From contig CAZUJF010000004.1 in NCBI GenBank assembly GCA_964619955.1, forward strand, positions 74,595-138,594: DNA of 64,000 bases, read 5' to 3'. This DNA comes from an uncultured Planctomycetales bacterium (GTDB lineage: Bacteria; Planctomycetota; MHYJ01; JACPRB01). Below are positions 15,675 through 58,607 of the stretch, piece by piece; positions within the stretch are counted from its first letter, which is position 1; the number at the start of each line of letters is the position of its first letter. A model generated the notes under the pieces. The model was not told where the DNA came from, made no database searches, and worked only from the letters and a program-made list of their open reading frames with translations. Both the position numbers and the translations under genes were made by a program.

Positions 15675-15690
15675 TGGCATGCCCCTTGCT
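15675..15690 (+). promoter_or_regulatory. Sigma-54-type -24/-12 element (TGGCAT-N5-TTGCT)
   Basis: GG and GC dinucleotides at canonical spacing. Lies in the AT-richer intergenic region about 60 nt upstream of an intrinsic terminator. Confidence 0.35.
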
Positions 15691-15969: not shown

Positions 15970-15985
15970 TGGCACGCTCTTTGCG
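15970..15985 (+). promoter_or_regulatory. Consensus sigma-54 promoter (TGGCAC-N5-TTGCG) upstream of recA
   Basis: Exact match to TGGCAC-N5-TTGC, about 65 nt upstream of the recA ATG. Confidence 0.55.
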
Positions 15986-38983: not shown

Positions 38984-39012
38984 ACTATAGGGGCGCGCTC
39001 AGCGGGCGTCAA
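38984..39012 (-). promoter_or_regulatory. Consensus-like sigma-70 promoter (TTGACG-N17-TATAGT) immediately upstream of paralog A
   Basis: Minus strand reads TTGACGcccgctgagcgcgccccTATAGTcgaggtcgagATG. The -10 lies 10 nt before the ATG, so the leader is very short or absent. Confidence 0.5.
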
Positions 39013-40876: not shown

Positions 40877-41484
40877 GCCCGGGTTTCGCCGAGGCGTCCG
40901 AGAGCCGCCAGAATCTGGCCCCACTCCGCAAGCTGCGGCTTCAATTCGTATTGCGCGAGGTCGCCCAGCTGAACGACATCGTTCTTCCGGAAAGCGTCCC
41001 GGAACCGCGTCAAGGACTCGACCACCTTGAGGATGAGCTCTTCCGCGGTACCGGCCGCACACGGAAGGGTCTTGAAATCCACCTGGAGGAGGCGACCGAG
41101 TTCCTGCATCGCCCCGGTCAGGAGCGCCCAGCCCCTGAAGCAGGCGTCGAAAGCCTTCAGGGCTCCGTCGTATTTCCCGGCGACCGTGAGGCTTCCCGCT
41201 TCATCATGACTTCGGCCGAGGCTCTCCAGATGGCGCTTGAGGTCGGCGATCATGCGGAGCGCGAAGGCTTTCGGCGTCGCGGTCAGGACGGCAAGCGCTC
41301 CAGGTGGAACGGAATCCCCGCCCCGTTCGGGAAGCAGTTCCACGGCCTTCCCTTCGACGCTCACGGAAACCAGCACCCGCTGCCGGGCTCCGCACCAGCC
41401 CCGCAGCTGCGCGAACAGATCCGAAATCGAGGGGTTCGAGGAGAGGCGAACCTCCTCCGGATTCCCGTCGATGGCGATGATCAT
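40873..41484 (-). CDS. Hypothetical protein, paralog B of the maf-flanking pair
   Basis: Start 'MIIAIDGN', end '...ELKPQLAEWGQILAALGRLGE'. Homologous to the 38341..38973 product. Confidence 0.6.
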   Translation of the reverse strand: MIIAIDGNPEEVRLSSNPSISDLFAQLRGWCGARQRVLVSVSVEGKAVELLPERGGDSVPPGALAVLTATPKAFALRMIADLKRHLESLGRSHDEAGSLTVAGKYDGALKAFDACFRGWALLTGAMQELGRLLQVDFKTLPCAAGTAEELILKVVESLTRFRDAFRKNDVVQLGDLAQYELKPQLAEWGQILAALGRLGETRA

Positions 41485-41530: not shown

Positions 41531-41986
41531 CTACCCCTCCAGGGCAAGGGGGGCCTCCCCGGCGGACACGGTCTGCACGGCCTCCTTGAGGGCGCGGAGC
41601 ATCGGAAAGCGCTCCTGCCGGTTCAGATCCATGGCTGCCGACCATGTATCCCGCAGATGAACGAGCACCTTCGACGCCTCTTCGGCAAGCTGCGGCTTGC
41701 GGTCGAGGTTGGCGCGGACCAGCCGGTTGTACACGAAGTCATAGAGGTCGGCGAGGGCCCGGTAGACCTCTCCGGGCATATCCTCCGGCTTGTGATAAGA
41801 CACCAACTCGAGGACGATCTTTTGAGCCCGGATCAGAAGGGCGCTGCAGGGCCCGAAGTCGTCGTCGCCGAATTTCGTCTTCGCCTGCTCGCAAAACCGT
41901 ATGGCCCCGTCGAAGAGCATGATGAACAGTTCCTCCGGGGTGGCGGTCCGAACCTTCGACTCCAGGTACTGGCGTGCGGGATTCAT
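41531..41986 (-). CDS. fliS: Flagellar export chaperone FliS
   Basis: 'YLESKVRTATPEELFIMLFDGAIRF' FliS signature. Confidence 0.9.
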   Translation of the reverse strand: MNPARQYLESKVRTATPEELFIMLFDGAIRFCEQAKTKFGDDDFGPCSALLIRAQKIVLELVSYHKPEDMPGEVYRALADLYDFVYNRLVRANLDRKPQLAEEASKVLVHLRDTWSAAMDLNRQERFPMLRALKEAVQTVSAGEAPLALEG

Positions 41987-42000
41987 GATGTCGTCCTCGA

Positions 42001-45000
42001 TTAGGTTCCCAAGATGCCCGACAGAAGCCCCTGAACGCGCTGCTGCGCGCTCTGCGATTGGGCGATGAGCCCCTCCAGGCGCGCAAAACGGAGGACCAGG
42101 TGGTCCGTCTGCCTTGCGAGACGCGCCTCGATCCGTTCCACCGACTCCTCCAAACGCTCAATCCCCTTCTGCAAGGTCTCCGAACGACGGGTGATCAACC
42201 CTTCGTCGCTCCGCGTGATGAAATCAAGCCGTTCATCCAGTCGCGCCGCGACGCCCGGATCGCCCCGGAGCAGCAGGAGATCCCCCCGGAGCACGTTCTC
42301 TCCTGCGGCGAGCGTCTTGGCGATCTTGAGTTCCGACGCCGCAGTGGAGCTGTTGAGATTCGTCACGCTCAGGGGATTCGTCTCGACCGGCGACGTATCC
42401 AAGAGCTCGACGGAGAAACCGTCGACGCCGATCCGCGCTTCGATCTTGCCGGAGTTCCCGGGGGCGCTGTTGATCGCGGACAACAAGGACCCCACCGTGC
42501 TGATGCCGGACAGGTCGATATCGAAAGCGGTCCCGTCCCGGGCCTTGATCCGGAAGTCGGCCCCGGGGACCTGGGAAACACCCCGTCCGTTGTTCAGATC
42601 GGCCAGGGGAGTGTCCACGCCGAGCTGGCGCTGCTTCAGGAAGAGCTGCTTGACGCCGTCGAAATCCGACGTCAGTTTCTCGTTGAATACCGAGGAATTG
42701 AAGTTCAGGGCGCCCTCCGCCGTCAGCGTCAGCCCGACCTCCGACATGGCATCGAGCTGGGAGACCGAGATCTCCCTGACGGGGTCGCTGATCAGTCCGC
42801 TCAGGTCCTGGGTGATCCTCCGGAGCACGCTCTCGCCGAACAGGATGCCCTTCTGGAAGGTCTCCGTGTTGAACGCGGTGAATTGCTTGATCTTGAGAAC
42901 GCTCTGGTTGAAGCTCTCCACGAAACGGCCCACCTGGTCCGTCACCGCCTGGGTGTCGCGGGACACGGTCACCGTCACGGGAGCGCCGCTCACCCCCCGC
43001 GCTTCCAGGACCAGGCCCGGTACCACGGTGTTGAAGACGTTGTCGGTGGAGGAGATCAGGGCGGGCTCGGTCGCCCCTTCCCCGGAACCGTACAGGAGCA
43101 GGGCGTCCTGGGCGGCCGCGCTCGCGGCGAACGTCAGTCCGGTGATGTCGGTGTCCACGAATACCCGGTTGGCCTTGCCCGTCTTGGAACTCGTGAGGCT
43201 CAGCCGATAGGGTGTCAATGGCGAACCATCGTTGATGATCGTGGCGCTTACGCCCACCTGGGCCCGGTTGAGCTGGTCCGCGATCTCCTGGAGCGTCGAA
43301 TTCGGATCGATCGCGACGGATTTCTCGAAACTGCCGTCGATTCGCCCCGGCGTGGCGCTTTTCGCCGTGCCCAGCAGATTCAGATCCCGTGCGGTCCGCC
43401 CGCCGTCGACCTCCTCCACTTTCAGGAGGCCGCCCCCGGCGCTGGCGTCGCTGAGCAGGATCCCGTCGCCGCCGTCGTTGATGCGGGCCAGAAACGAGGA
43501 GTTGCCGGCCGCCGCAGCCCCGGCGTTGATTTCCTGAACCACCCGGCCGAGGGTGTTGTCCCCCGTCTGGCTGAGATCCACGGTAAAGGCCCGGCCGACG
43601 GTGTCGGTGACCTTGAGTTTTCCCTTGGCGACCCCGAGGCCGCCGTTCAACTTCGTCAGCAGCGTGTTTTCCCCGAGAAAGCGGGGGTCGAGGTCCGACC
43701 CCTGAATGCGGTCGGAGGCCACGCTGGCGGCGATCCCGAGATCCGTCGCCGGGGCTCCCGACACGATCAGGTTCGACACCGAGACGCCGGTGGAGTCGTC
43801 CACCTTCAGACCGTTCCCCTGGGCGTTCAACGAGGCCTGCAGGCCGAGTCCCGCGGAGGCCGCCCCCCGGTTCAGGGTCCGGACGATGTCCGCGAGCGAC
43901 TCGTTCAAGGCGTGCACCGCATTCCCCGCGGTCGCCGTGCCCGACAGGTCCCGGTCGAAACCGACGGTCGCCCCGCTGATCTCCGTCACGGTGCGATACT
44001 CCGCTCCCGAGGAGGTCTGCACCCGGATCCGGTTCCCCACCGCAAACCCGTCCGCGGAACTCAAGGTCAGATGCTTGGCATCCACGACCGCCACGAGCGA
44101 GGCCTCCACCCGGGAGGACACATTGACGCTCGTCGATGCCCCCGAACGATCCGTCAGGCCGACGCTTCCCTCGGCGACCCCCTTGAGATCCGCCGCGACA
44201 CTCGATCCTCCGTTGATCAAGCCTCTCTGGAGGCTGTTGAGAGTCGGGAGCAGCGAGCGGCCCACCAGACGGCTCCCACTCAGCGCATCGGCGACGCCCG
44301 TCGACGCGTTCTCCGCGGCCACCTGCACGAACGACCCGCCGGAGCCGCCGCCCAGTCCGAGATCGGCGGCGGCAAAACTGTCCGTCGCGCTGCCGACGCT
44401 CAGGGCCTGCACACCCGCCGTATCGGAGAGTACCAGAGCATTCCCGGCAGTGGACAGGGAGGCGCTCAGGCTGGACCCAGCCGAAAGGGCTCGCGCATTG
44501 ATCAGGTCGACGACCCCCTGGAGGGTCGTCACCGTGGAGGCGAGGTCCACGGAAACCGCCGTGCCGTCCGTGTCGGTGATCGTGAAATCAACGGCCACGT
44601 CGCTGTTCCGGCGGACGCCCTGCCCCCCGTTCAGCGAGTCCAGGGTGTTCGAGGCTTTCAAGGTCAGGATGTCCGATCCGAAGACGAACTGGCTCGACCC
44701 CAGCACCACCCCGCTGCCGGCGATGCCCAGGGAACTGGCCGTCCGGTCCGCGCCGGCGTTTTCGATGCGGAACGTCCCGGCACCCCCCGCCAGATCCTCG
44801 ACGACGAGCCGGTTTCCCTGCACGGAGGCGCGGACGGACACCGAGGGCGCGGCGTTCAGGGCCTCCACGATCTCGGCGACATCGGTGACCCCTCGAAGGT
44901 CGACGGTCCCGCTCCGGCCCGCGGAATCCGTGATCTTGAGCGCTCCCCGGTCGAAGCCGGTCTGTCCGTTGAGGTACGCCACGTCGGTGGCCGGATCCAG

Positions 45001-45414
45001 TCCGGTGCCGCCGATCTGCACCCGCACGGTGCCGGCGGCGGTCGCCACGTTGCTCGCGTTCGCGTCGACGAAACCGTTGGAGAGCAACTGGGACGCCTGG
45101 GCCAGCCGCTTGGGCGTGAAACTGTAGCTGCCCGGCACGGCCACGGAGGATCCGGTGGCTCCGAGAACCGCCTCGTTGCTGGAGGCGGCCTTCGTGGACG
45201 CATAGATCCGCGGGCTTGAGAGGAGGCTCGTCGTGCTCTTCAAGGAAAGGAGCTGGACGTTGAGTTCCAGCAACGCCGTCTTGCGGGCGGTCTCCACCTC
45301 GATCTTGGCCTTGTACTGGTCGGCCGGCCGGCGCTGGACGGCGAGCATCTTCTCGATGATCGACGCGAAGTCGATCCCCGAGATCAGGCCATCCACGCGA
45401 ATCGGTCCGACCAT
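42001..45414 (-). CDS. fliD: Flagellar filament cap protein FliD (unusually large, 1137 aa)
   Basis: N-terminal 'GLISGIDFASIIEKMLAVQRRP...' and C-terminal coiled-coil FliD domains. Very long Ser/Thr/Gly-rich central region. Confidence 0.85.
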   Translation of the reverse strand: MVGPIRVDGLISGIDFASIIEKMLAVQRRPADQYKAKIEVETARKTALLELNVQLLSLKSTTSLLSSPRIYASTKAASSNEAVLGATGSSVAVPGSYSFTPKRLAQASQLLSNGFVDANASNVATAAGTVRVQIGGTGLDPATDVAYLNGQTGFDRGALKITDSAGRSGTVDLRGVTDVAEIVEALNAAPSVSVRASVQGNRLVVEDLAGGAGTFRIENAGADRTASSLGIAGSGVVLGSSQFVFGSDILTLKASNTLDSLNGGQGVRRNSDVAVDFTITDTDGTAVSVDLASTVTTLQGVVDLINARALSAGSSLSASLSTAGNALVLSDTAGVQALSVGSATDSFAAADLGLGGGSGGSFVQVAAENASTGVADALSGSRLVGRSLLPTLNSLQRGLINGGSSVAADLKGVAEGSVGLTDRSGASTSVNVSSRVEASLVAVVDAKHLTLSSADGFAVGNRIRVQTSSGAEYRTVTEISGATVGFDRDLSGTATAGNAVHALNESLADIVRTLNRGAASAGLGLQASLNAQGNGLKVDDSTGVSVSNLIVSGAPATDLGIAASVASDRIQGSDLDPRFLGENTLLTKLNGGLGVAKGKLKVTDTVGRAFTVDLSQTGDNTLGRVVQEINAGAAAAGNSSFLARINDGGDGILLSDASAGGGLLKVEEVDGGRTARDLNLLGTAKSATPGRIDGSFEKSVAIDPNSTLQEIADQLNRAQVGVSATIINDGSPLTPYRLSLTSSKTGKANRVFVDTDITGLTFAASAAAQDALLLYGSGEGATEPALISSTDNVFNTVVPGLVLEARGVSGAPVTVTVSRDTQAVTDQVGRFVESFNQSVLKIKQFTAFNTETFQKGILFGESVLRRITQDLSGLISDPVREISVSQLDAMSEVGLTLTAEGALNFNSSVFNEKLTSDFDGVKQLFLKQRQLGVDTPLADLNNGRGVSQVPGADFRIKARDGTAFDIDLSGISTVGSLLSAINSAPGNSGKIEARIGVDGFSVELLDTSPVETNPLSVTNLNSSTAASELKIAKTLAAGENVLRGDLLLLRGDPGVAARLDERLDFITRSDEGLITRRSETLQKGIERLEESVERIEARLARQTDHLVLRFARLEGLIAQSQSAQQRVQGLLSGILGT

Positions 45415-45430: not shown

Positions 45431-45841
45431 TCAGACTTCCTGATCCAGAATGACCCCCATCACATCGTGAAGCTTCCGGTGCAGTTCCAGCACTTCCTTG
45501 GCCGGCACCATCTTGACGACGTCGTTGGTCCGGCGGTCGATCACCTTCGCGTAGAACTCCTCGGTGCCCTCATAGACGTCGAACGCCAGGCGGTGTCCCA
45601 ATTCCTTGGCCACCCGGTTGAGCCGCTCGACCATCTTCTCGAGCCCCTCCTTGTCGCCTTCCTCGGGCTTCTCCGCCTCTTCTGCGGCCTCGACCGGCTT
45701 GACGGGGTCCTTGAGGACCCGGACATCCGCCTCTTCGGGAGGCGGGACGTCGGAAGGGAGAGGACGCTCACGCACTGGAGCCTTGTAGGGAGACAGCGAA
45801 AGCGGCTCCGGTCCGGGAGCAGATGAAAGATTCCCGATCAT
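45431..45841 (-). CDS. flaG: FlaG family protein
   Basis: C-terminal 'AFDVYEGTEEFYAKVIDRRTNDVVKMVPAKEVLEL' FlaG motif. Confidence 0.8.
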   Translation of the reverse strand: MIGNLSSAPGPEPLSLSPYKAPVRERPLPSDVPPPEEADVRVLKDPVKPVEAAEEAEKPEEGDKEGLEKMVERLNRVAKELGHRLAFDVYEGTEEFYAKVIDRRTNDVVKMVPAKEVLELHRKLHDVMGVILDQEV

Positions 45842-45906
45842 GACCCTACCCCACCCAACACACTCTTATCGGTCCGAACCATCTTCCCTCTGAAGACCCC
45901 CCGAAG

Positions 45907-45936
45907 GGGCCGCCCCGCATCCATGCAGGGCGGCCC
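45907..45936 (-). terminator. Strong hairpin downstream of the flagellin gene (attenuator/terminator-like) with UGGA apical loop
   Basis: Minus strand: GGGCCGCCC-uGCA-UGGA-UGCg-GGGCGGCCC. No long U-tract follows, so partial read-through into flaG-fliD-fliS is plausible. Confidence 0.45.
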
Positions 45937-45954
45937 CCGGGGTGGATTGCCGGA

Positions 45955-47655
45955 TTAGCCGAGCAGCTGGAGGACGGCCTGCGGGATCGCCCGCGAGGAC
46001 GCCAACGCCGCGATGCCCGACTGGAAGAGAATCTGGTTCCGCGCGAAACTGGCGGTCTCTTCCGCGAAGTCGAGGTCACGCAGGCTCGACAGCGAGGCCT
46101 GCAGGTTTTCGCTCACGACATCGATCGACTCGATGTTCGGCTCGAGGTTGAAGGCCGAAACGGCCCCCAGGAAGCCGCGCATCTGGGAGACCTGGTCGCC
46201 GGCCGCCTGAATGATCTTCAGGGCGTTCGCGGCGTTCTGGGTCAGGTCGTTGCCCTGACCCGTGCGAAGGGTGTTCAGGAAGCCGCCCATGTTCACCGCG
46301 CCCGAGGCGCCGCCGCTCGTGAACAGGCTGCCGCTGGTGGAGTCCGCATTGGCGAACTCGGCGTCCTTCAACGCTTCCGAGAGGACGTCGCGGAGGCTCT
46401 CGAAGCCGAGAGACGCGGTGCCGACGCTCCTGATGCCGAGCGAGAGCCGGTCCGTGACCGACGCCTGCTCCCGGAGCTGGAAGTCCAGACCGGTCCGGCC
46501 GACCTTGATCTGGATGCCGCTGCTGTAGGACGACACGGCCGAGGCCACCTCGTCGACGGCGGTGAGGCCGAAGGGGTGGTAGAGATCCGCGTTCACGTCG
46601 AAGGTGAAGCTCGCATTGGCCGTGTTGATGTTGAAATGCAAGCCCTTGCCGGTATACACGGAACCGTCGAACTTCATCTGGCCGTCGAGGCCCCGGTCGG
46701 AAACGAGCGAGCTGGAGGCCACGTGCTGGTAGAAGTCGGTGATGGATTGCGCCGAGAAGCCGGCCACACCGCCGCTGTAGACCAGCTTGCTCACATCAGT
46801 GACCGTCAGGCCGTTGTTCACCGCCTGGGCCGAGATGAACTGATCATTGCCGAAACCTTCGGATTGGAGCCTGACGTCCGCACCGTCCTGCGTTGCGAAG
46901 ACGCCCGTCCGGTCCGCCACGCCGTTGACCGCTTTGGCGATGCCCGAAGCCGTCTCCCCGGAAGCCAGGACGATGTCGGCCGTGCCCAGGGCGCCCGTGA
47001 TGCGGATCGTGGACGTCTGACCGCTGCCGATCGCGTTGGAGGCGACGGCACCGGCGAGGAGGAGTTCGGCCCGCTGCGCCGAACGCTCGAACTGGAGGGT
47101 CAGCGTGCGCTCCGTGTCGGCACCCGCGAAGTTCATGCTGCGGATGTTCACGTTGCGGAAAGCCTGATAGGTGGCGCCGTTGTTGTCCTCGGCCAGCGAA
47201 CCGCTGGTGCCGGTGACCTTGTAGCCGGCGCTGCCGTTCAGGAGCGCCCGGCCGGCGAAGCGCGTGGTGTTGGCGATGCGGTCGATCGCGTCCAGGGCCT
47301 GGTCGACCGAATCCTGCTCGGCCGCCACCTGCTCGGGACTGTTGGAGCCGCTGCTCATCGCGAACTGCAGCGAGTCCTGGATCGACGTGAGGAGGTCGCC
47401 GACCTTGGCCAGGGCGTTGTCCGCCGTGGACACGAGGTTCAGCGCGCTCTGGGAGTTCTCGGAGTTCTGCTTCAGGGCCGAGATCTGCTGGCGCAGCTGT
47501 TCGCTGATGACCAAGCCGGAGGGGTCGTCCGCGCCGCGGTTGATGCGCAGGCCGGACGAGAGACGCTCCAGGGTCTTGGATTGGGCGCGATCGGTCATCT
47601 GCAGGTTACGAATCGAGTTGACCGCCGCCGTGTTGGTGTTGATACGCAGAGCCAT
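45955..47655 (-). CDS. fliC: Flagellin
   Basis: Conserved N-terminus 'MALRINTNTAAVNSIRNL...LSSGLRINRGADDPSG' and C-terminus 'ASFARNQILFQSGIAALA'. 566 aa with a large variable centre. Confidence 0.95.
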   Translation of the reverse strand: MALRINTNTAAVNSIRNLQMTDRAQSKTLERLSSGLRINRGADDPSGLVISEQLRQQISALKQNSENSQSALNLVSTADNALAKVGDLLTSIQDSLQFAMSSGSNSPEQVAAEQDSVDQALDAIDRIANTTRFAGRALLNGSAGYKVTGTSGSLAEDNNGATYQAFRNVNIRSMNFAGADTERTLTLQFERSAQRAELLLAGAVASNAIGSGQTSTIRITGALGTADIVLASGETASGIAKAVNGVADRTGVFATQDGADVRLQSEGFGNDQFISAQAVNNGLTVTDVSKLVYSGGVAGFSAQSITDFYQHVASSSLVSDRGLDGQMKFDGSVYTGKGLHFNINTANASFTFDVNADLYHPFGLTAVDEVASAVSSYSSGIQIKVGRTGLDFQLREQASVTDRLSLGIRSVGTASLGFESLRDVLSEALKDAEFANADSTSGSLFTSGGASGAVNMGGFLNTLRTGQGNDLTQNAANALKIIQAAGDQVSQMRGFLGAVSAFNLEPNIESIDVVSENLQASLSSLRDLDFAEETASFARNQILFQSGIAALASSRAIPQAVLQLLG

Positions 47656-47666
47656 TGTTCAATCCT

Positions 47667-47697
47667 CCATGACTTCGGTCCTCGGCCATCCATGGCC
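47667..47697 (-). promoter_or_regulatory. CsrA-type binding sites in the flagellin 5' UTR (hairpin GGCCA-UGGA-UGGCC plus GGA over the SD)
   Basis: The mRNA reads ...gcGGCCAUGGAUGGCCgaggaccgaagucAUGGAGGAuugaacaAUG. One GGA sits in a hairpin loop and one overlaps the SD. csrA and fliW are encoded 1 kb upstream. Confidence 0.5.
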
Positions 47698-48021
47698 GCG
47701 ACCCTAATTACCTCCGGCCGTCCCGTACGGCGGTTCGACCGGCGTCGTTGGCTTGATTCCGCGCTATTTCAAGCGCGCGATCAACCCGTCATGCCACCTC
47801 CCAGCCGTCCACAGGCCCCACCCCGGCGGCTCTCGGAGGCCGCCCACTCCAGACCCGCCCACGCAGGCCCCAGAATTCATGGGGTGAGGGATAGCAAGAC
47901 CGGGGCCATGGCTGTTCCCCAGCTGAACAGAGTCGGGAGGAGCGCTTCCGACAGGAATGTGCCGACAATTTTGTAAGCCGGGGGACGAGCTTGTCGTGGG
48001 TTCCTTTTTGCAGGAACCGCC

Positions 48022-48552
48022 CTAACGTCCCAGGGCGTGCCCCAGCGCCGAAGGATCGGCTCCGGAAGCTTGAAGATTTTCGAACCCCACATCCCGCGAG
48101 CGAGGGACCGCCGCCCCGTAGGACAGAAGCACGTTCACCACCATCAGGGCGCGCAGCAGCTCGGCAAGAACCGATTGCAGGATCTTGAGCGCCCCCTCGT
48201 GCGAGCCGAAGAGATCGTTCCCGCCGCCCGAATACAACGTCGCCAGCGGACTGCCGGTCATGCGGCCCCCCGGCAGCTTGCCCGCCTTCGCCAGCGCGCC
48301 CAGCGCCGCCACCGGCGTCCCCAGCTTCCGCAGGGTCCACGCGCTGCGCCGCAGTTCATCCAGCGCCTCGTCGATGAAGACCTGGCGCGGCGCGCGCGCC
48401 TCAGGACCCTCCGGGGTGACGTAGGACGATTGGATCGACAGCACCTGGTCGCGGGCTCCCATGAGCAGCTGCCGGGTCTCGATCAGACCCTCCCGCGAGA
48501 CCGTCGTGACGAGAGGAATGCGACGCGTGACGGGCCGAGGCTTCCGCAACAC
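48022..48552 (-). CDS. Hypothetical protein between csrA and the flagellin gene
   Basis: ORF of 176 aa with no recognisable motifs. A GGTTCC-tttttgca-GGAACC hairpin follows its stop. Confidence 0.4.
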   Translation of the reverse strand: MLRKPRPVTRRIPLVTTVSREGLIETRQLLMGARDQVLSIQSSYVTPEGPEARAPRQVFIDEALDELRRSAWTLRKLGTPVAALGALAKAGKLPGGRMTGSPLATLYSGGGNDLFGSHEGALKILQSVLAELLRALMVVNVLLSYGAAVPRSRDVGFENLQASGADPSALGHALGR

Positions 48553-48553
48553 G

Positions 48554-48811
48554 TCAGGCCCCCGGACCCTTCTCGCGCCGCTTCTTCTCGTCCACCAGCT
48601 TCTGGAGGGCCTCCAGCGACAGCGGCCCCGCGCGGGCCGCCTCGCGGTTCGCCTCCTGGATCGCCTGATAGACCTCTTTCCGATGCACGCTCACGGACGC
48701 CGGCGCCTGGATGCCGATGCGGACCTTCCCGCCCTTGATGTCGATGATCGTGATCTCGATCTGATCCCCGATCACGATCGTTTCGTTGACCGCCCGCGTC
48801 AGCACCAGCAT
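48554..48811 (-). CDS. csrA: Carbon storage regulator CsrA
   Basis: '[48 protein letters not shown]' near-canonical CsrA. Confidence 0.95.
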
Positions 48812-49239
48812 CAGGCACCCACCATCAGCTTGTGACGCGTCGTCAGGCCCGGCTCCGCCAGCACCACCTGGCGCCCCAGCCGCTCCTTGATGTTGAGCAC
48901 GATCGGCCCCTGCAGGTTGGCCGTGATCTCCCTGGGATCGCCGGGCACCGTCAGGATCACGACCACGCGCCCTTCGGCGGCGTCCGCCAGCCGGATCGAC
49001 GCGACGTCGTCGGAGCGCACGGACACCTTGTAGTCGCTGAAGAATTCCACCGGATCGACCACGACGAACGCCACCCCGGGATCCTCGGCCGCCTGCAGCC
49101 AGAGAAAGGGGCCGCCCTTGGGATTCGGGATCAGCGCGAACTTCCTCAGCGCCGGAAATCCCAGCAGGCCCTCCGGGAAGCTGAGGATCTCGTCGTCCGC
49201 GACGTCGATCGCCCCGAAACGAGTGGTCGGAATCTTCAT
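48811..49239 (-). CDS. fliW: Flagellar assembly factor FliW
   Basis: FliW-like N-terminus '[21 protein letters not shown]' and length. Immediately upstream of csrA, with a stop/start overlap. Confidence 0.85.
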
Positions 49240-49240
49240 G

Positions 49241-51187
49241 TCAGATGTAATTCAACAGGCTCGTGTCCAGGATCCGCGCGGCGGTCGCCAGCGCCGCCTC
49301 CAGCACCGTCTGCTGGATCTGGAAGCGCGTGGCGGCCTCCGCCAGGTCGATCTCCCGGGTGGAGGATCTCAACAGCTCCAGCTCGGTCGTTTCCAGCTCG
49401 GTCCGGTCCCGCGTGAAGTCGAGTTGGAGACTGCGCACCCCGATCGTGGCGCGCCCGGTCGCCAGCTTTTCCCCGGCGATGTCCAGCAGGCGGCCCGCGG
49501 AACCGATGATGCCCGGGTCATTCGCGAGCAGACCCTCCCGCAGCCGGAGCAGGGCGCTGAAAATCCCCTCGCTCTGCTCCCCCGCCCAGGTCAGCGTCGT
49601 TCCCGTGATCGTCGCCAGGGGGGCGCTTCCCTCGATGCCCAGTTGAGTGGCACTCTGGGAAGCCCCCACGTTGCCGATGACCAGCGGGCCCGGGCCCCCC
49701 GAGGAATCCGTGATGACGAGCTGATCCAGCCCGTTCACGACGGCCGTGAGATCCGGATCCTGCTCGATCCGGTCCAGCAGGGCCCGGACCGAATCCAGAT
49801 CATCGACGTCGATCAGGATCTCCGTCCCGTCCGTCTTGGTGATCTTCACATCGTCGCCGTCGACCGACTCCACGCCCAGGCCGCCGTTCAGGTCTTGAAG
49901 GCGGGAGCGCTCCAGGTTGGAGAGCAGGCCGAGTTCGGACGCCGTCGATCCCCCGTTCTCCGTCACCCGGAGCCGGCCGCCGGAGAGCCGGGACCGCAGT
50001 TCCAGCTGCGTCCCGTCGGCGCTGATCGCCATGTCGACGTAGACGCCCGCCTGCTCCACCGCGTTGATCAGGCCCTCGATCGTCATGCCCGGCGCGCCGA
50101 ACACCGCCGCGCCGATCGTCGCGGTGAGGGTCTGCCCCGGATCCTGGTTCGTGATCACGATTCCGGAAGGCGAAACACCGCCGCCCGCGAAGAGATCGTC
50201 CAGCTGGGTCTGCATCGTGAGCCGCGGGAACAAATCCGTCCCCGCCAGCGGCGAGGCGGCGGAGCCCGCGATCCCCAGATCCTGAGCGGTCCGCCCGTTC
50301 GGAAGATCCGCCACCGTGACGACCCCGGCGCCCGTCAGTTCCAGGGAGTTCCCCGTCACGCCGTCGATCGCCGCCGTCACCCCGATGCCCGCGCCGTTGA
50401 TCCGGTCGACCACGTCGCCGATCGTCCGCGCGCCGTTGAGGTCGAGCGTCGCCGTGAGCGCGCCCAGCGAGACCTGGATCTCCCCCAGCGACACCCCGAG
50501 GCCGCCGTGCAGATCCCCCAGCGAGGTCTGCAGGGAGATCCCCGGATCCAGATCGATGGGAAGCAGCGTCGCGGGATCCCTGCCGATGAGTTCATCCGAG
50601 AAGGCGCCGAAGACCGAGCCGGGGATGTTGGAGGAGGTCTTCACGCCGTCCGCGATTTCAACGCCGAGCTCCTGCAGGTCCCCGAGAAACACGACGCCGC
50701 CGTCCTTGAGGGCGAAGGCGTCCTGGTTCGTCCGGCTCCCCGAGAAGAGCGTGCGGCCTTCGAAACGCTTGTTGGCCTGGGCGACGGCGTCCTGCAGCAT
50801 CAGCGTGATTTCGGACGCCGCCTCCGAACGCGACTGCGCGTTCGCGATGCCGCCGACCTGATCGAGCAGGATCGTGCGCGCACGCTCGACGATGCCGATG
50901 CTCCCCTCCAGCGCCCCGTCCGAGACGGCCAGGCGGCCGTTGGTGGATTCGATGTTCCTGAGGAACTGGGCGTCGCGACGGAGCCCGCGCGTGTAGTTCT
51001 GGACCCGGTTGGATCCCGTGGGGTCGTCGGAGGGCCGGTTGATCCGGTAGCCGGAGGACAGCTGCTCCTGGATCTGGAAGAGGCTCCGCTGGCTCCGGTT
51101 GAGGTTCGAGAGGACGACGTTGCGCGACAACATCGAGGAGACGCGCGAGAAGCCGCCGCCCGACAGCCCCGATCCGAAATTCACCAT
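49241..51187 (-). CDS. flgL: Flagellar hook-associated protein 3 FlgL (large, 648 aa)
   Basis: Flagellin-like N-terminus 'NRSQRSLFQIQEQLSSGYRINRPSDDP' and conserved C-terminus. Expanded central region. Confidence 0.8.
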   Translation of the reverse strand: MVNFGSGLSGGGFSRVSSMLSRNVVLSNLNRSQRSLFQIQEQLSSGYRINRPSDDPTGSNRVQNYTRGLRRDAQFLRNIESTNGRLAVSDGALEGSIGIVERARTILLDQVGGIANAQSRSEAASEITLMLQDAVAQANKRFEGRTLFSGSRTNQDAFALKDGGVVFLGDLQELGVEIADGVKTSSNIPGSVFGAFSDELIGRDPATLLPIDLDPGISLQTSLGDLHGGLGVSLGEIQVSLGALTATLDLNGARTIGDVVDRINGAGIGVTAAIDGVTGNSLELTGAGVVTVADLPNGRTAQDLGIAGSAASPLAGTDLFPRLTMQTQLDDLFAGGGVSPSGIVITNQDPGQTLTATIGAAVFGAPGMTIEGLINAVEQAGVYVDMAISADGTQLELRSRLSGGRLRVTENGGSTASELGLLSNLERSRLQDLNGGLGVESVDGDDVKITKTDGTEILIDVDDLDSVRALLDRIEQDPDLTAVVNGLDQLVITDSSGGPGPLVIGNVGASQSATQLGIEGSAPLATITGTTLTWAGEQSEGIFSALLRLREGLLANDPGIIGSAGRLLDIAGEKLATGRATIGVRSLQLDFTRDRTELETTELELLRSSTREIDLAEAATRFQIQQTVLEAALATAARILDTSLLNYI

Positions 51188-51248: not shown

Positions 51249-53159
51249 TCAAATCCCGTTGATCAGCGTGTTGAGCAGCTCGTCGATGACCCCGATGAAG
51301 CGCGCCGAGGCCTGGAAGGACCTCTGGTACTGGATCATCGAGACGGCCTCCTCGTCGATGTTCACCCCGGAGATCCGCTCGCGCTGGTTCTCCAGCTGCT
51401 GGGCGACGAGGGACTGGTTCTCGAGGCGGTCCTGCGATTCGCGCGACTCGACCCCCATCCCGCCCACCATCCCCTGGTAGAACTCCTCCAGGGTCCGCCC
51501 GTCCACGGAGGCGACGTCGCGGAGCGCGGCGAATGCGAGCGCCCCGGCGTTATCCCCGGGGTTGTTCGACAGCGCCCCGCTCAGGTACTCGGGATGCTCC
51601 CGGAGCAGCGCGTTCACCGCGATCCCGCCCGCCTCGTCGCCCGTGAAAAGGGCGTTCAGACCCGAGGCGGCGAGGAAGCCGCTCGTGTCGTTGGCGAAGC
51701 TGAACCGCAGATCCCCGGAGGCCGTCCGGATCCGGATCCGGTTGTCGCTCGTGAGGAAGGCGTCGAGATTCGGCACCGCATCCAGGTCGGCCACGATGTC
51801 GCTCCACGTGGTGTCGGCGCCCAGGCGGTCGAGGTCCACGTCGATCGTGTACGTGTCCTGGACCCCGGTGGTCTCGTTGGTCATCACGACCTGGAAACTC
51901 CCGTTCTCCACCGGGAAGGGCAGTTCGGTGATCTGGTACCTGGTGTCCAGCGCCAGGGGCTCGGCGAGCGGCTTGTCGAAAAAGAGCGTCCCGGTCGAGG
52001 AATCGAAGGCGATGATGCGGCGCGTCTCCAGGGCGTTCTTCCCGTCCAGGAAGCGCACCGTGCGGCCCGTGGGATCGCCCGGCAGCGTGATCAGGGCGCC
52101 GTCCATCAGCGTGTCCTTCGTGGACAGCGCCGTGACGCTCCCGGCAATCGCGACCGGAACCCCCGGATCCCCCATGGAACGCAGGCTCGTCAGATCGAGG
52201 AAGCGCTCCAGGCCCTGTCCCGTGGACTGGACCCGGTTGAACTCGTAGGCGGTCGCGTTGGCGAGCAGGTCCAGATCGTGGCCCGCGCCCGCCAGGATCT
52301 CATCCCGGCTTTCGAGCAGCCCCTGCAGGCGGCCGCCGCCGATGTCGAGGGTGGCGCTGATGCCGGCGAACACGGGATCGGCCAGCACGATGCCGTCCTC
52401 GCCCGTCTCTTCGAGGCCGATGTCGTAGGATTCCTCCCCGAAGACGAGGAAGGTCGTCCCCACGAGGACGTTGAGCTGTCCCGTGGCGGTCTCCACGCCG
52501 CTGACTTTTATGAGATCGCTCAGTTCGCGCATCAGGAGGTCGCGGCGGTCGCGCAGATCGTTCGCCGTCTCGAACCCGAGGCCGTCCTTCTCCGCCGCCG
52601 TCACCTGCACGTTCAGCGACGCGATCTCGGAGGCCTTTGAATTGATGTCGGAGACGGCGATGCGCACGTCGTCGTTGAGCTGGGTGCGGGACTCCTTGAT
52701 GCGCCGGTCGAGATAATTCAGGGTTCCGGCGAGAGTCTGGGCGTTGCCGAGCACCTGGGCCCGCGTCGAGGCGTCCTCGGGGTTGTTGGCGAAATCGTGG
52801 AGGGATTCGAAGAAGTCGTCGAACGACGCCCCGAGGCTGCTGTCGGAGAGCGCCCCCATCAGCCCCTCCAGGGCCGAGAGGGCGTCGCTGCGCACGCCGA
52901 GCGTCGCGAGATTCGAGGCGGCGTCCCGGAGCCGTCCTTCCAGCGACTTGTCGATGATGCGGCGGACCGCCGCCACGCTGGTCCCGCGCCCGATCTGGTG
53001 CCGGCCGTAGGTCTGGGGGCGGGCGGCCGTCAGTTCCGCGCGCTGCCGGGTGAAGCCCGGCGTGTTCGCGTTGGCGATGTTGTGGCCCGTCGTCTGGAGG
53101 GCCGTCATCATCGACTGCAGGCCCGTGAGGGCGGTGTTGACGGAGCTGAACAGCGTCAT
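51249..53159 (-). CDS. flgK: Flagellar hook-associated protein 1 FlgK
   Basis: 'NTALTGLQSMMTALQTTGHNIANANTPGFTRQ' rod/hook N-domain and FlgK C-terminus 'SGVNIDEEAVSMIQYQRSFQASARFI'. Confidence 0.9.
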   Translation of the reverse strand: MTLFSSVNTALTGLQSMMTALQTTGHNIANANTPGFTRQRAELTAARPQTYGRHQIGRGTSVAAVRRIIDKSLEGRLRDAASNLATLGVRSDALSALEGLMGALSDSSLGASFDDFFESLHDFANNPEDASTRAQVLGNAQTLAGTLNYLDRRIKESRTQLNDDVRIAVSDINSKASEIASLNVQVTAAEKDGLGFETANDLRDRRDLLMRELSDLIKVSGVETATGQLNVLVGTTFLVFGEESYDIGLEETGEDGIVLADPVFAGISATLDIGGGRLQGLLESRDEILAGAGHDLDLLANATAYEFNRVQSTGQGLERFLDLTSLRSMGDPGVPVAIAGSVTALSTKDTLMDGALITLPGDPTGRTVRFLDGKNALETRRIIAFDSSTGTLFFDKPLAEPLALDTRYQITELPFPVENGSFQVVMTNETTGVQDTYTIDVDLDRLGADTTWSDIVADLDAVPNLDAFLTSDNRIRIRTASGDLRFSFANDTSGFLAASGLNALFTGDEAGGIAVNALLREHPEYLSGALSNNPGDNAGALAFAALRDVASVDGRTLEEFYQGMVGGMGVESRESQDRLENQSLVAQQLENQRERISGVNIDEEAVSMIQYQRSFQASARFIGVIDELLNTLINGI

Positions 53160-53169
53160 GCCAGGTCCC

Positions 53170-53667
53170 TCAGACGGTCTCGTCGATCATGAGTTTCGGG
53201 GCATCGGAACGGTTCTCGATGCCGCGGCGCGAATAGACCACGTCGTCCTTCACGCCGCCGAGGATCCGGAAGAAGCGTTTCACGTAGTCGAGCGACTGCT
53301 CCGTCAGGGAACGGTTGGCGCGGTTCACCCGCGCCACCTCGCCCAGCGTCTTCCGCAGGTCGTCGGCTTGGGCCGCCAGCGCGGCCTTCCAGGGCTCCCC
53401 CGCCCGCTCGGCGATGCGGGTGACCGAGGCCTCGGCCTCGGGGACCCCGAGCAGGCGGGCCGTTTCCGCCGTCCGGCGCAGGCGGCGTTCCGCCGCGTGG
53501 CCGATGGCGCCCAGGAGCGCCTGTTCGCGGGAATTGGCCTGCTCCACCGCGGGCACGTCGAGCCGCACGAGGGCCTCCCGCTTGCGCAGGCCGACCGCGA
53601 GCAGTTCGGCTTCCAGGCGGATTTCGTCCGCCAGCGCCAGCTCGAGACCCTTGATGACTTCGATCAT
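53170..53667 (-). CDS. flgN: FlgN-family export chaperone
   Basis: About 165 aa, helical, upstream of flgK. Overlaps the previous gene as ATGA. Confidence 0.55.
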   Translation of the reverse strand: MIEVIKGLELALADEIRLEAELLAVGLRKREALVRLDVPAVEQANSREQALLGAIGHAAERRLRRTAETARLLGVPEAEASVTRIAERAGEPWKAALAAQADDLRKTLGEVARVNRANRSLTEQSLDYVKRFFRILGGVKDDVVYSRRGIENRSDAPKLMIDETV

Positions 53668-55054: not shown

Positions 55055-55166
55055 CGTTCACTCTCCGGGTCTCCCCTCCGGCCGGCTTAATAAACCCGGG
55101 ACGGGCGGGCTGCTGAAGGCCCGCCCGCCCCAGGGCTCCGGAGAGGGGTTCTGTAAACTTCGCTTT

Positions 55167-58452: not shown

Positions 58453-58467
58453 GGGAGCTAAAGCAAG
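58453..58467 (-). promoter_or_regulatory. Consensus sigma-54 promoter (TGGCAC-N5-TTGC) for the flgF-to-flgL operon
   Basis: The plus strand reads GCAAGAGCCGTGCCA, the exact reverse complement of TGGCACGGCTCTTGC. It lies about 140 nt upstream of the flgF ATG. Confidence 0.65.
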
Positions 58468-58607
58468 AGCCGTGCCAATGCCTTTCCCCTAGGGAGAATC
58501 AATCGGGAGGCGTGAAGCGGAAGGAAGTTCCTTCCTGGCGACGGTCGATTCCTTCCGCCTGCGCGGATGCGGGTGGGACACCGTCCGTTAAGCGAACGAA
58601 CGCCGCG

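Follow-up and report, generated by a model that had tools for sequence, protein, structure and literature searches.

Sequence comparison of a flagellar locus pointed to a partner-switch module in which the flagellin mRNA would carry CsrA-type sites at both ends: a two-site operator in its 5' leader, and a 3'-end hairpin that would double as a third CsrA docking site. This reading is held with slightly better than even confidence. Judged by its sequence features, the 5' part is the already known FliW-CsrA-flagellin design, now extended to a poorly studied, probably planctomycete clade. The new part is the hairpin at the 3' end, the conservation of which suggests that the flagellin mRNA also has a CsrA-type GGA site in its tail. 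Positions refer to the window, the whole 64,000-nt stretch of DNA that was analysed, and are collected in Table 1.

Gene content and comparison set

The original prediction had placed a FliW-CsrA-flagellin module in this region, in the order flgN-flgK-flgL-fliW-csrA-x-flagellin-flaG-fliD-fliS. Pfam searches bore out this order, with every gene on the minus strand, subject to two corrections that concerned flgN and gene x. The identity of the module was supported by the Pfam families, by the adjacency of fliW and csrA, the stop and start codons of which overlap at 48811, and by matches of the csrA product to CsrA entries in the PDB (E around 1e-17). At 85 aa the protein is longer than the E. 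coli CsrA chain (61 aa). Its best solved relative, aligned over residues 2-73, was 5DMB_D, which we take to be the Geobacillus CsrA-FliW complex. On the basis of this length and alignment, the protein is predicted to have an extended C-terminus of the kind that FliW contacts.

Gene x was assigned to a frame that differs from that of the mechanically derived ORF 47789-48340, and the intergenic region before flagellin is therefore 366 nt long. Orthologues of x (98-182 aa) were present in five lineages (L026, L032, L034, L037 and L038), and a Pfam search with x gave no match.

Table 1. Positions of genes and regulatory features within the window.
Feature	Position	Strand	Basis or remarks
flgN	53170..53667	-	Pfam FlgN, E = 4.5e-21; corrected coordinates
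flgK, hook-associated protein 1	51249..53159	-	Pfam FlgK_D1, E = 2e-49
flgL, hook-associated protein 3, flagellin-like	49241..51187	-	Pfam Flagellin_N and Flagellin_C; same position in syntenic loci
fliW	48811..49239	-	Pfam FliW, E = 4e-37
csrA, 85 aa, C-terminal extension (predicted)	48554..48811	-	Pfam CsrA, E = 1e-25
Gene x, function unassigned, 146-176 aa	48022..48552 (alternatively 48022-48462)	-	Codon-position GC profile; called gene in L025
Hairpin GGUUCCU-GCAAAA-AGGAACC after x, likely operon end	47999..48018	-	Sequence; equivalent in L026 and L037
Degenerate copy of conserved palindrome CCGACA-N5-TGTCGG	47962..47976	-	Alignment
Putative sigma-54-type promoter motif TGGC-N7-TTGC (GG-N10-GC), TGGCCCCGGTCTTGC	47894..47908	-	Motif match
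Leader mini-ORF, GGGAGG-N5-AUG ACG GGU UGA	47781..47802	-	Seen in 11/11 lineages
Leader hairpin, invariant loop UUGAAAUA	47759..47778	-	10/11 lineages; stem changes preserve pairing
Variable leader hairpin	47714..47742	-	Fold; position conserved, sequence not
BS1, 5' CsrA-type hairpin, apex CC-AUGGAU-GG; core GGCCA-UGGA-UGGCC within longer stem GGUC-G-CGGCCAUGGAUGGCCG-AG-GACC	47677..47703 (core 47684-47697)	-	Sequence, fold, alignment
BS2 over Shine-Dalgarno sequence	AUGGAGGA at 47670..47663; CAUGGAGGA at 47663..47671	-	23 nt from BS1 GGA, 7 nt before AUG
Flagellin, 566 aa	45955..47655	-	Pfam Flagellin_N and Flagellin_C; homologues found; ATG at 47655, TAA at 45957-45955
3' hairpin, apex GCA-UGGA-UGC, no U tract; core GGGGCCGCCCUGCA-UGGA-UGCGGGGCGGCCCC	45897..45942 with outer stem (core 45906-45937)	-	Fold, 11-lineage alignment
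Putative sigma-28-type promoter for flaG-fliD-fliS, CTTCAG-N18-CGATAAG	45865..45895	-	Sole such match in window
Conserved GGGUGGGG block before flaG start	45849..45856	-	Alignment
flaG	45431..45841	-	Pfam FlaG, E = 1e-18
fliD, 1137 aa, unusually long	42001..45414	-	Pfam FliD_N and FliD_C
fliS	41531..41986	-	Pfam FliS, E = 8e-28

Comparisons were made across 11 lineages, consisting of this genome and 10 other syntenic lineages that were obtained by protein search and contig look-ups as relatives with 48-76% identity. Scans of genomes and JGI metagenome contigs yielded only relatives of approximately 37-47% identity over the full flagellin protein; the probable placement in Planctomycetota is based on named homologues in this range. 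Two other assemblies with exactly the same flagellin were 100% identical to the window and were thus uninformative on strain-level variation.

The flagellin leader

The leader had been predicted to be a classic two-site CsrA target, with one GGA in a hairpin loop (BS1) and a second over the Shine-Dalgarno sequence (BS2). Fold and alignment both backed this assignment. In the 11-lineage alignment 98% of the cells in the BS1 stem were paired, three of the six pairs showed compensatory changes and the GGA, presented in the loop as A-N-GGA-N, was invariant, as was the Shine-Dalgarno block AUCAYGGAGGAU. The spacing between the BS1 and BS2 GGA motifs was 22-25 nt in the 11 lineages, which falls inside the 10-63 nt range over which a CsrA dimer bridges two sites (PMC7652899). 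Among flagellin loci of more distant Planctomycetota, about 20 in number, most had a looser form of the two-site leader and some did not.

Promoters recognised by sigma-54 have the consensus TGGC-N7-TTGC (GG-N10-GC). The putative promoter of this type implies a flagellin leader of approximately 230 nt. The motif occurred six times in the window, compared to 1.5 expected, and exactly one match was found upstream of flagellin in each of L026, L029, L032-L034 and L036-L038; L028 has CGGC in place of TGGC. A sigma-28-type promoter for flagellin itself was not found in the 366-nt upstream region, where the sigma-54-type motif was present instead. The conserved palindrome CCGACA-N5-TGTCGG is a candidate site for an enhancer-binding protein. 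Within the leader, the mini-ORF retained its Shine-Dalgarno sequence, start and stop in all 11 lineages, with variation in its two codons and a UAA stop in L029.

A conserved GGA hairpin downstream of flagellin

The original prediction had set a hairpin on each side of flagellin, and both were found where it placed them, on the minus strand and each with a CAUGGAUG apex. That the two apexes are identical held for this genome and for L038 (CAAGGAUG at both ends); elsewhere it did not, and the only common pattern was CA-NGGA-NG. The 3' hairpin has a 14-bp G+C stem and begins 17 nt past the TAA here and 13-21 nt past the flagellin stop across the lineages, after a stretch that could not be aligned. 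The 81-nt 3' region folds at -50.6 kcal/mol (z = -3.4), a stability that was reached by none of 200 shuffles, and the hairpin is the longest in the window with GGA in its loop.

The 31-nt core of the hairpin averaged 93% identity over the 11 lineages. Its loop GGA was invariant in all of them, while both flanking bases varied among U, C and A, and this pattern lent real support to the prediction that the apex is a CsrA-type site. The apex reads GCA-NGGA-NGC in 10 of the 11; the exception, L028, has CCCGGACC, with C and not A two bases before the GGA. The loop is an ANGGAN hexaloop in seven lineages, an NGGA tetraloop closed by A-U in three (this genome, L034 and L038) and an 8-nt loop in L028. 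In the stem, 9 of the 14 pairs never varied and there was little covariation. All of the non-Watson-Crick pairs were G·U on the sense strand, with U·G in 9 of the 11 lineages at one pair, indicating that the element acts as sense RNA. The alignment demonstrated that purifying selection acts on both the GGA and the stem, and conservation in the 10 other lineages settled the reality of both the 5' and 3' elements.

The 3' apex shares its geometry with RUACARGGAUGU, the consensus from SELEX, in which a C-G pair closes a hexaloop (PMC7652899), and it fits the CsrA sites identified by CLIP, which include AUGGA in apical loops (PMC5207318). Two other features are atypical. High-affinity SELEX hairpins mostly have no more than four contiguous pairs, and stems of high stability may be unfavourable for CsrA (PMC7652899), whereas the stem here comprises 14 bp plus an outer stem. 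In addition, 3' UTRs are depleted of CsrA peaks in CLIP data (PMC5207318), and the hairpin lies after the flagellin stop and upstream of the flaG promoter motif, rather than within a 5' UTR or close to a start codon. Near-invariance throughout the stem exceeds the need of either a CsrA site or a plain 3' hairpin, and there may be another or an additional ligand.

The 3' hairpin occurs once per locus, which ruled out a repeated REP-like element. One other GGCCGCCC...GGGCGGCC palindrome was present (33623-33651), inside a coding region. Rfam searches of 40-56 kb found nothing at E <= 1, and in the window plus five loci no hit reached the gathering score. In the distant relative L003, GCAUGGAUGC serves as the apex of the 5' BS1. 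A purine-rich stretch with GGA follows the 3' hairpin in 10 of the 11 lineages; it lies inside the putative promoter spacer and its position is not conserved.

The boundary between flagellin and flaG

Sigma-28 (FliA) promoters consist of a TAAA-like -35 element, a spacer and a GCCGATAA-like -10 element. In all 11 lineages a sigma-28-type motif, YTYMAG-N17/18-CGATAR, separates the hairpin from flaG, and the motif was conserved in L039 as well. The proposal that the hairpin is also the flaG 5' region is for this reason probably wrong: it would mark the 3' end of the flagellin mRNA and would not be part of a normal flaG leader. No U tract follows the hairpin in any of the 11 lineages, the tails being UUCGGGG, UGAGGGG or ACCGGGG, and a terminator scan of the window did not list it. 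Canonical hairpin-plus-U terminators do exist elsewhere in the window (7627-7600 and 55134-55095). The missing U tract weakens the case for a CsrA-tuned intrinsic terminator.

Three further candidate features were rejected. A 14-codon uORF at 45882-45838, located after GAGGGAAG and overlapping flaG at ATGA, was kept only in the closest relative, L026; the ATGA overlap was missing in L031, L032, L034 and L038. An ORF starting from an AUG in the 3' loop was ruled out because most lineages have ACGGA or AAGGA there, and hence no AUG. By inspection, long-range pairing between an arm of the 3' hairpin and a G-rich segment before BS1 would involve at most about five pairs and would require the -50 kcal/mol hairpin to melt.

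Proposed mechanism

In the favoured model, flagellin would be transcribed from the sigma-54-type promoter with a leader that ends in the two-site CsrA operator. A single CsrA dimer bridging BS1 and BS2 would block ribosome entry, and FliW, once released from flagellin, would take CsrA away. The U-tract-less G+C hairpin would define or stabilise the 3' end of the flagellin mRNA and insulate flagellin from the separately promoted flaG-fliD-fliS operon, while its tip would present the third CsrA-type site. We infer that CsrA would bind the 3' hairpin, with the following effect: CsrA could be held at both ends of each flagellin transcript, so that the regulator is tethered or titrated on its main target.

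CsrA is known mainly as a regulator that acts at 5' UTRs. In FliW-type systems, flagellin, FliW and CsrA act at near-equimolar ratios, and CsrA has the flagellin mRNA as its main ligand. If the model is correct, a strongly selected 3' CsrA-type site on that mRNA would alter the circuit's stoichiometry and would indicate that CsrA takes part in transcript-end biology, in the storage of mRNA or in titration. The element concerned is small, has clear boundaries and is kept in 11 lineages, and the regulatory layout around it is unusual: flagellin has a sigma-54-type promoter and a mini-ORF in its leader, and the flaG operon is of the sigma-28 type.

A more far-reaching version of the model, which we regard as improbable, holds that CsrA sites at both mRNA ends are of high affinity. 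Bivalent dimers could then loop the mRNA or join many transcripts by cross-links into a store that is silent in translation, or the nuclease-resistant 3' hairpin could outlive the mRNA as a 3'-end-derived CsrA sponge. If true, this would give a FliW-type system without CsrB-like sRNAs a layer of CsrA control that is based on RNA.

Alternative explanations

It is unlikely, though the possibility deserves real weight, that the 3' hairpin is purely a transcript-end element, whether it terminates transcription without a U tract, blocks exonucleases or insulates the sigma-54-type flagellin unit from the sigma-28-type flaG unit, with its GGA kept for a reason other than CsrA (recognition by a different RNA-binding protein or by an RNase, or a tertiary contact, for example). 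Such a role would agree with the position of an extremely stable hairpin right after the stop codon, with a whole stem that is frozen and not the apex alone, with the ordinary hairpins, lacking a GGA apex, that more distant relatives carry at the same place, and with a 14-bp stem atypical of CsrA sites (PMC7652899). It accords poorly with a loop in which exactly the GGA is fixed and its neighbours vary, which is the signature of CsrA sites. Moreover, BS1 of the same gene uses the same apex type, csrA is encoded near flagellin in 8 of the 11 loci, and we know of no other reader of GGA loops in flagellar loci.

The original prediction had also suggested that CsrA at the 3' apex could tune termination versus read-through into flaG-fliD-fliS, and a related possibility is that it represses flaG on read-through RNA. 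Absence of a U tract suggests that termination is leaky or depends on a factor, CsrA can shift the equilibrium between terminator and antiterminator in Legionella and is able to promote termination by Rho at pgaA of E. coli (PMC5338858), and the flaG leader of C. jejuni is a CsrA target (PMC4894983). These precedents notwithstanding, flaG here has its own conserved promoter motif downstream of the hairpin, the GGA at its ribosome-binding site is not conserved, and the apex lies approximately 70-80 nt or more from the flaG Shine-Dalgarno sequence, outside the bridging range (PMC7652899). Neither was any alternative antiterminator pairing conserved, and CsrA prefers a pre-formed loop, so that binding would follow folding of the hairpin. 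Regulation of read-through is considered quite doubtful.

Strict conservation of the stem sequence, with little covariation, and the position of the repeat just upstream of the -35 element would also be expected of a DNA operator, in which a dimeric transcription factor binds GGGGCCGCCC-N11-GGGCGGCCCC, with its centre some 60 bp upstream of where flaG transcription would start, and regulates the sigma-28-type promoter. This was judged very unlikely, since the invariant GGA at the centre of the palindrome is strand-asymmetric, a conserved T/G position breaks the DNA symmetry yet forms a U·G pair in the sense RNA, and 14-bp half-sites are implausibly long.

Coincidence of the matching apexes, for which it can be said that the bare 8-mer CATGGATG was not significant alone (three copies in the window versus 1.54 expected) and that 5% of shuffles yielded at least two apex-plus-stem matches, is given practically no credence, being already refuted by a loop GGA kept in 11 lineages over which synonymous sites are near saturation (four-fold sites in the gene adjoining the 3' hairpin 48% identical, versus 40% by chance). 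The third 8-mer copy (1326-1333) is a gene start without a hairpin. The apex-plus-stem search used the consensus CA[ACU]GGA[UC]G, drawn from the 5' UTRs of distant relatives, and required at least four further base pairs; it returned two sites only in 128 kb (both strands), compared to 0.38 expected. GGA occurred in 7 of the 59 strong hairpin loops of the window, and a loop GGA is therefore not rare in itself.

Comparison with known systems

As with hag of B. subtilis, fliW and csrA lie beside flagellin, the leader has two GGA sites with the downstream one over the Shine-Dalgarno sequence, and CsrA is predicted to have the C-terminal extension that FliW uses. The locus differs from hag in its probably planctomycete lineage, in its sigma-54-type promoter where hag has a SigD promoter, in the length and extra conserved elements of its leader, in the additional gene x between csrA and flagellin, and in its conserved 3'-end GGA hairpin. 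To our knowledge, no such 3'-end hairpin has been reported for hag. The hag paradigm, with CsrA sites BS1 and BS2 and a Hag-FliW-CsrA partner switch (Yakhnin 2007; Mukherjee 2011), is taken here as summarised in PMC7652899.

The leader also resembles SL1/SL2 of C. jejuni flaA, which has a pair of ANGGA loops, of which the second lies over the ribosome-binding site, together with a fold supported by compensatory changes (PMC4894983). In C. jejuni, CsrA has the flagellin mRNA as its dominant ligand, and this mRNA buffers the regulator with respect to further flagellar genes, flaG among them (PMC4894983), a precedent for the titration proposed above. There, however, titration is ascribed to the 45-nt 5' UTR, and CsrA binds the flaG mRNA within that gene's own 5' UTR (PMC4894983), whereas here an extra site lies 3' of the flagellin ORF and the flaG leader has no conserved GGA.

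The hairpin in the E. coli glgC leader tethers a CsrA dimer with high affinity (Mercante 2009, as summarised in PMC7652899). A similar arrangement is proposed here, in which a GGA-loop hairpin would hold CsrA so that its second RNA-binding face reaches another site, but the glgC hairpin is only a few nucleotides from the Shine-Dalgarno sequence, and 1.7 kb of sequence separates the 3' hairpin here from that of flagellin. An A(N)GGA motif with an intergenic hairpin that possibly ends transcription is shared with the gap operon and thi leader of L. pneumophila (PMC5338858) and with E. coli pgaA; these require alternative folds or Rho, whereas here one hairpin with GGA in its loop dominates and no alternative fold is conserved. 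Finally, the 3' hairpin is like a Rho-independent terminator in being G+C-rich and directly past a stop codon, and unlike one in its U-less tail and in a sequence conservation far above what pairing needs.

Gene order and syntenic relatives

Pfam matches bore out the identities of flgK, flgL, fliW, csrA, flagellin, flaG, fliD and fliS in the window, as well as those of flgN, flgI and flgH further upstream. The predicted placement of csrA and fliW upstream of flagellin within a flagellar gene order agreed with these matches, once the frame of gene x, which lies between csrA and flagellin, and the flgN coordinates were corrected. The frame adopted for gene x was that indicated by the codon-position GC profile and by a gene call in a public contig of identical sequence; an ORF at 47789-48340 was ruled out as gene x on the same two grounds. 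This correction lengthens the intergenic region before flagellin from about 130 nt to 366 nt. Gene x had no Pfam match; orthologues of 98-182 aa were present at the same position in L026, L032, L034, L037 and L038 and missing in L028 and L029. The window-encoded CsrA (85 aa) aligned best to 5DMB_D, through residue 73, an alignment spanning the C-terminal extension of FliW-type CsrAs, the role of which has been described (PMC7652899).

Scans of genome and metagenome contigs yielded only flagellins that were approximately 37-47% identical over their full length, the labelled ones all from Planctomycetota. Closer flagellins (76% down to 48% identity) were obtained by a protein search, and contig look-ups then provided ten further syntenic loci (L026, L028, L029, L031-L034 and L036-L038), most with the order flgL-fliW-csrA-(x)-flagellin-flaG-fliD-fliS; with the window these represent 11 lineages. 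Two assemblies with an identical flagellin protein had DNA 100% identical to the window and were hence uninformative. Contigs of more distant relatives carried two flagellin genes each (L039, 1-836 and 3001-4569; P0015 and P0045; P0025 and P0040), and the subclade with the 3' hairpin described below had a single flagellin at this locus.

Features of the flagellin locus in window coordinates
Feature	Coordinates	Strand	Description
flgN	53170-53667	minus	corrected coordinates
Gene x	48022-48552 or 48022-48462	minus	between csrA and flagellin
Palindrome CCGACA-N5-TGTCGG	47962-47976	minus	conserved; the window copy (TTACAAAATTGTCGG) is degenerate; lies ~45 nt upstream of the sigma-54-type motif
Sigma-54-type motif TGGC-N7-TTGC	47908-47894	minus	conserved upstream of flagellin throughout the clade
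Leader mini-ORF	47781-47802	minus	own GGAGG, 4-6 nt, start, two codons, stop
Leader hairpin	47759-47778	minus	invariant 8-nt loop UUGAAAUA; directly after mini-ORF stop
BS1 hairpin	47697..47684 (core); 47703..47677 (extended)	minus	GGCCA-UGGA-UGGCC; extended GGUC-G-CGGCCAUGGAUGGCCG-AG-GACC
BS2	47670..47663	minus	AUGGAGGA; 7 nt before flagellin AUG
Flagellin ORF	47655..45955	minus	TAA stop 45957-45955
3' hairpin	45937..45906 (core); 45942..45897 (with outer stem)	minus	GGGGCCGCCCUGCA-UGGA-UGCGGGGCGGCCCC; outer stem CCCCG...CGGGG; after flagellin TAA

The probable two-site operator before flagellin

Hairpins with a UGGA apex had been predicted on both sides of flagellin. Both were found at the predicted places on the minus strand, and RNA folding placed UGGA in the loop of each. 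The accompanying claim of a two-site CsrA architecture before flagellin, with one GGA in a hairpin loop (BS1) and another at the Shine-Dalgarno (SD) sequence (BS2), was also supported: both sites were kept in 11/11 lineages. The final 50 nt of the leader shared one plan throughout: a 6-bp BS1 hairpin (GCGRCC/GGYCGC) presenting A-[A/U]-GGA-[C/U/A], then an invariant AUCA[U/C]GGAGGAU block, with the start codon 3-8 nt further on. In the 11-lineage alignment 98% of BS1 stem cells were paired, with compensatory changes at three of the six pairs; the covariation score was matched in only 2/500 shuffles, and slid controls dropped to 22-60% pairing. The BS1 GGA lay 22-25 nt from the first SD GGA (22 nt in 8/11 lineages), a spacing that a CsrA dimer can bridge (10-63 nt; PMC7652899).

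The same architecture has been demonstrated by experiment in the leaders of B. subtilis hag and C. jejuni flaA (PMC7652899, PMC4894983). Among the more distant Planctomycetota, most loci, but not every one, had looser versions, and apart from its lineage the 5' part is ordinary for FliW-type systems. On the strength of this anatomy and precedent, CsrA very probably acts at BS1 and BS2 to repress flagellin translation, with FliW lifting the repression.

A conserved hairpin after the flagellin stop codon

The 3' hairpin was present in 11/11 lineages, in one copy per locus, 13-21 nt past the flagellin stop. In the window the 81-nt 3' region folded at -50.6 kcal/mol (z = -3.4), and 0/200 shuffles folded as well. 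The consensus was GGGGCCGC[C/U]C-[U/C/G]GC-[A/C]-NGGAN-[G/C]C-[G/C]-GGGCGGCCC, in which the loop GGA was invariant and both the preceding and the following base were U, C or A. In seven lineages a C-G pair closed the hexaloop A-N-GGA-N, the geometry of the majority of SELEX-selected CsrA ligands (PMC7652899); in the window, L034 and L038 an A-U pair closed an NGGA tetraloop, and the loop of L028 was 8 nt long. The CLIP motif in Salmonella is AUGGA in an apical loop (PMC5207318).

Mean pairwise identity across the 31-nt core was 93%, compared with 48% at four-fold degenerate third positions of the adjoining flagellin gene (40% expected from composition), and the stretch from stop codon to hairpin could not be aligned; this contrast indicates strong purifying selection on the 3' hairpin. 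Of the 14 stem pairs, nine were constant and one had changed in a compensatory way; pairing was kept in 94% of cells. Below the loop-closing position every non-Watson-Crick pair was a G·U on the sense strand, including a U·G pair kept in 9/11 lineages, for which the opposite strand would have a mismatched C·A. This is evidence for an RNA element of the sense strand and against a DNA operator. No Rfam family was matched by the hairpin. At the same position, L039 (Planctomycetes bacterium RBG_16_59_8) and other more distant relatives had unrelated hairpins lacking a GGA apex, which makes the 3' site an innovation of this subclade. In the literature searched, this conserved and sharply defined variant had no earlier description.

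The 8-mer CATGGATG was unremarkable, with three copies in the window against 1.54 expected, the third being a gene start without a hairpin. An apex consensus, CA[ACU]GGA[UC]G, was drawn from the 5' UTRs of flagellin genes in distant Planctomycetota, not from the window; most of those 5' UTRs show it at a hairpin tip. Scanning the window for this consensus with at least four further base pairs gave exactly two matches, both sense-strand and flanking flagellin, against 0.38 expected per whole window; two or more matches occurred in 5% of shuffles. GGA is not rare per se in strong hairpin loops of the window (7/59). The 3' hairpin was the longest of the window hairpins with GGA in the loop; the others lay opposite coding sequence, in antisense, or on the strand that is not transcribed.

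A second GGCCGCCC...GGGCGGCC palindrome, with none expected by chance, lay inside a coding region at 33623-33651 (plus). The segment AAUCCA (45943-45950, minus), immediately 5' of the 3' hairpin, is complementary to the window loop UGGAU, and in L026 AAUCCG is complementary to the loop CGGA; this single change, which looks compensatory, was confined to these two closest lineages and was not seen in the others.

A probable flaG promoter and possible roles of the 3' hairpin

Between the hairpin and flaG, variable sequence was broken by YTYMAG, 17-18 nt, CGATA[A/G] and then GGGUGGGG, 8-10 nt before the flaG AUG. The sigma-28 (FliA) consensus is TAAA-N15-GCCGATAA. YTYMAG-N17/18-CGATAR fits this consensus, occurs once in the window and is also found in L039. 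Because of this conserved motif, flaG-fliD-fliS most likely have their own promoter downstream of the hairpin. The hairpin would thus be the flagellin 3' end, entering flaG transcripts only by read-through, and is probably not the normal flaG 5' region that had been claimed. A GGA near the flaG start was found in some lineages only and was absent in others, including the window.

No U tract followed the hairpin in any of the 11 lineages; the tails (UUCGGGG, UGAGGGG, ACCGGGG or UCCGGGG) pair with the upstream CCCCG and so lengthen the stem. A consensus terminator scan of the window did not list the hairpin, and canonical hairpin-plus-U terminators are used elsewhere in the genome (e.g. 7627-7600 and 55134-55095). 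Any termination here would be non-canonical or depend on a factor, and the hairpin could equally well stabilise the 3' end or act as a barrier to processing.

The 3' hairpin may well form a stable end of the flagellin mRNA that also displays a third CsrA-type site. The most plausible effect of binding there, a tentative step that is less likely than not, would be that CsrA is tethered to, or titrated on, its dominant target, the flagellin mRNA, by analogy with the glgC tether hairpin (PMC7652899) and with C. jejuni flaA mRNA as a CsrA buffer (PMC4894983). Four points speak against CsrA binding: the stem is 14 bp long, whereas SELEX ligands have short stems (PMC7652899); CsrA peaks are depleted from 3' UTRs (PMC5207318); the entire stem is constant, which hints at some further constraint; and the feature is absent from distant relatives. 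The original model, in which CsrA at the hairpin controls read-through into flaG, is possible but weakened by the independent flaG promoter, the lack of a conserved alternative fold and the distance of the apex from the flaG ribosome-binding site (~70-80 nt or more, past bridging range). The original observation was confirmed and its interpretation partly supported.

Further elements of the leader and locus

The 366-nt region before flagellin contained further conserved blocks; the implied leader, approximately 230 nt, therefore has a more elaborate make-up than a two-site operator by itself. TGGC-N7-TTGC occurred six times in the window (1.5 expected; others include 58463-58477 (minus), 15675-15689 (plus) and 15970-15984 (plus)) and exactly once upstream of flagellin in eight relatives. 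Flagellin thus appears to be sigma-54-dependent, with a sigma-28-type promoter for flaG-fliD-fliS. The CCGACA-N5-TGTCGG palindrome, also upstream in L026, L032, L033, L037 and L038, may be an enhancer-binding-protein site.

The mini-ORF lay 99-137 nt before the flagellin AUG in 11/11 lineages, with AUG as start in nine and CUG and UUG in one each, UGA as stop in ten and UAA in one, and two freely varying internal codons. The UUGAAAUA-loop hairpin followed this stop by 3-6 nt and could thus be opened by a ribosome on the mini-ORF. The hairpin was present in 10/11 lineages (absent from L029), had no Rfam match, and its stems changed yet kept pairing (GCGCGC/GCGCG vs CUCCGC/GCGGGG). Another conserved structured element, AGAUCCCCCGGGAGACCCCGA..GUUCCGAAAGGGC..UCGGGGUUGCUCCCGG, without an Rfam match and absent from the window, was found in the csrA/x-flagellin interval of L026 (~3305-3360), L028, L029 and L037.

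Between flgH and flgI, within the flagellar gene run, a 16-bp hairpin followed by UUUAUUAA (55095-55134, minus) was terminator-like. FliD was unusually long at 1137 aa (42001-45414, minus), compared with 1134-1220 aa in most relatives and 582 aa in L038. Downstream of fliS was a gene for a 687-aa protein (38999-41062, minus) with an MptE-like domain, a domain of motility accessory factor (Maf) proteins, which would suggest flagellin glycosylation. In L036, DegT and DUF2920 genes adjoined flagellin.
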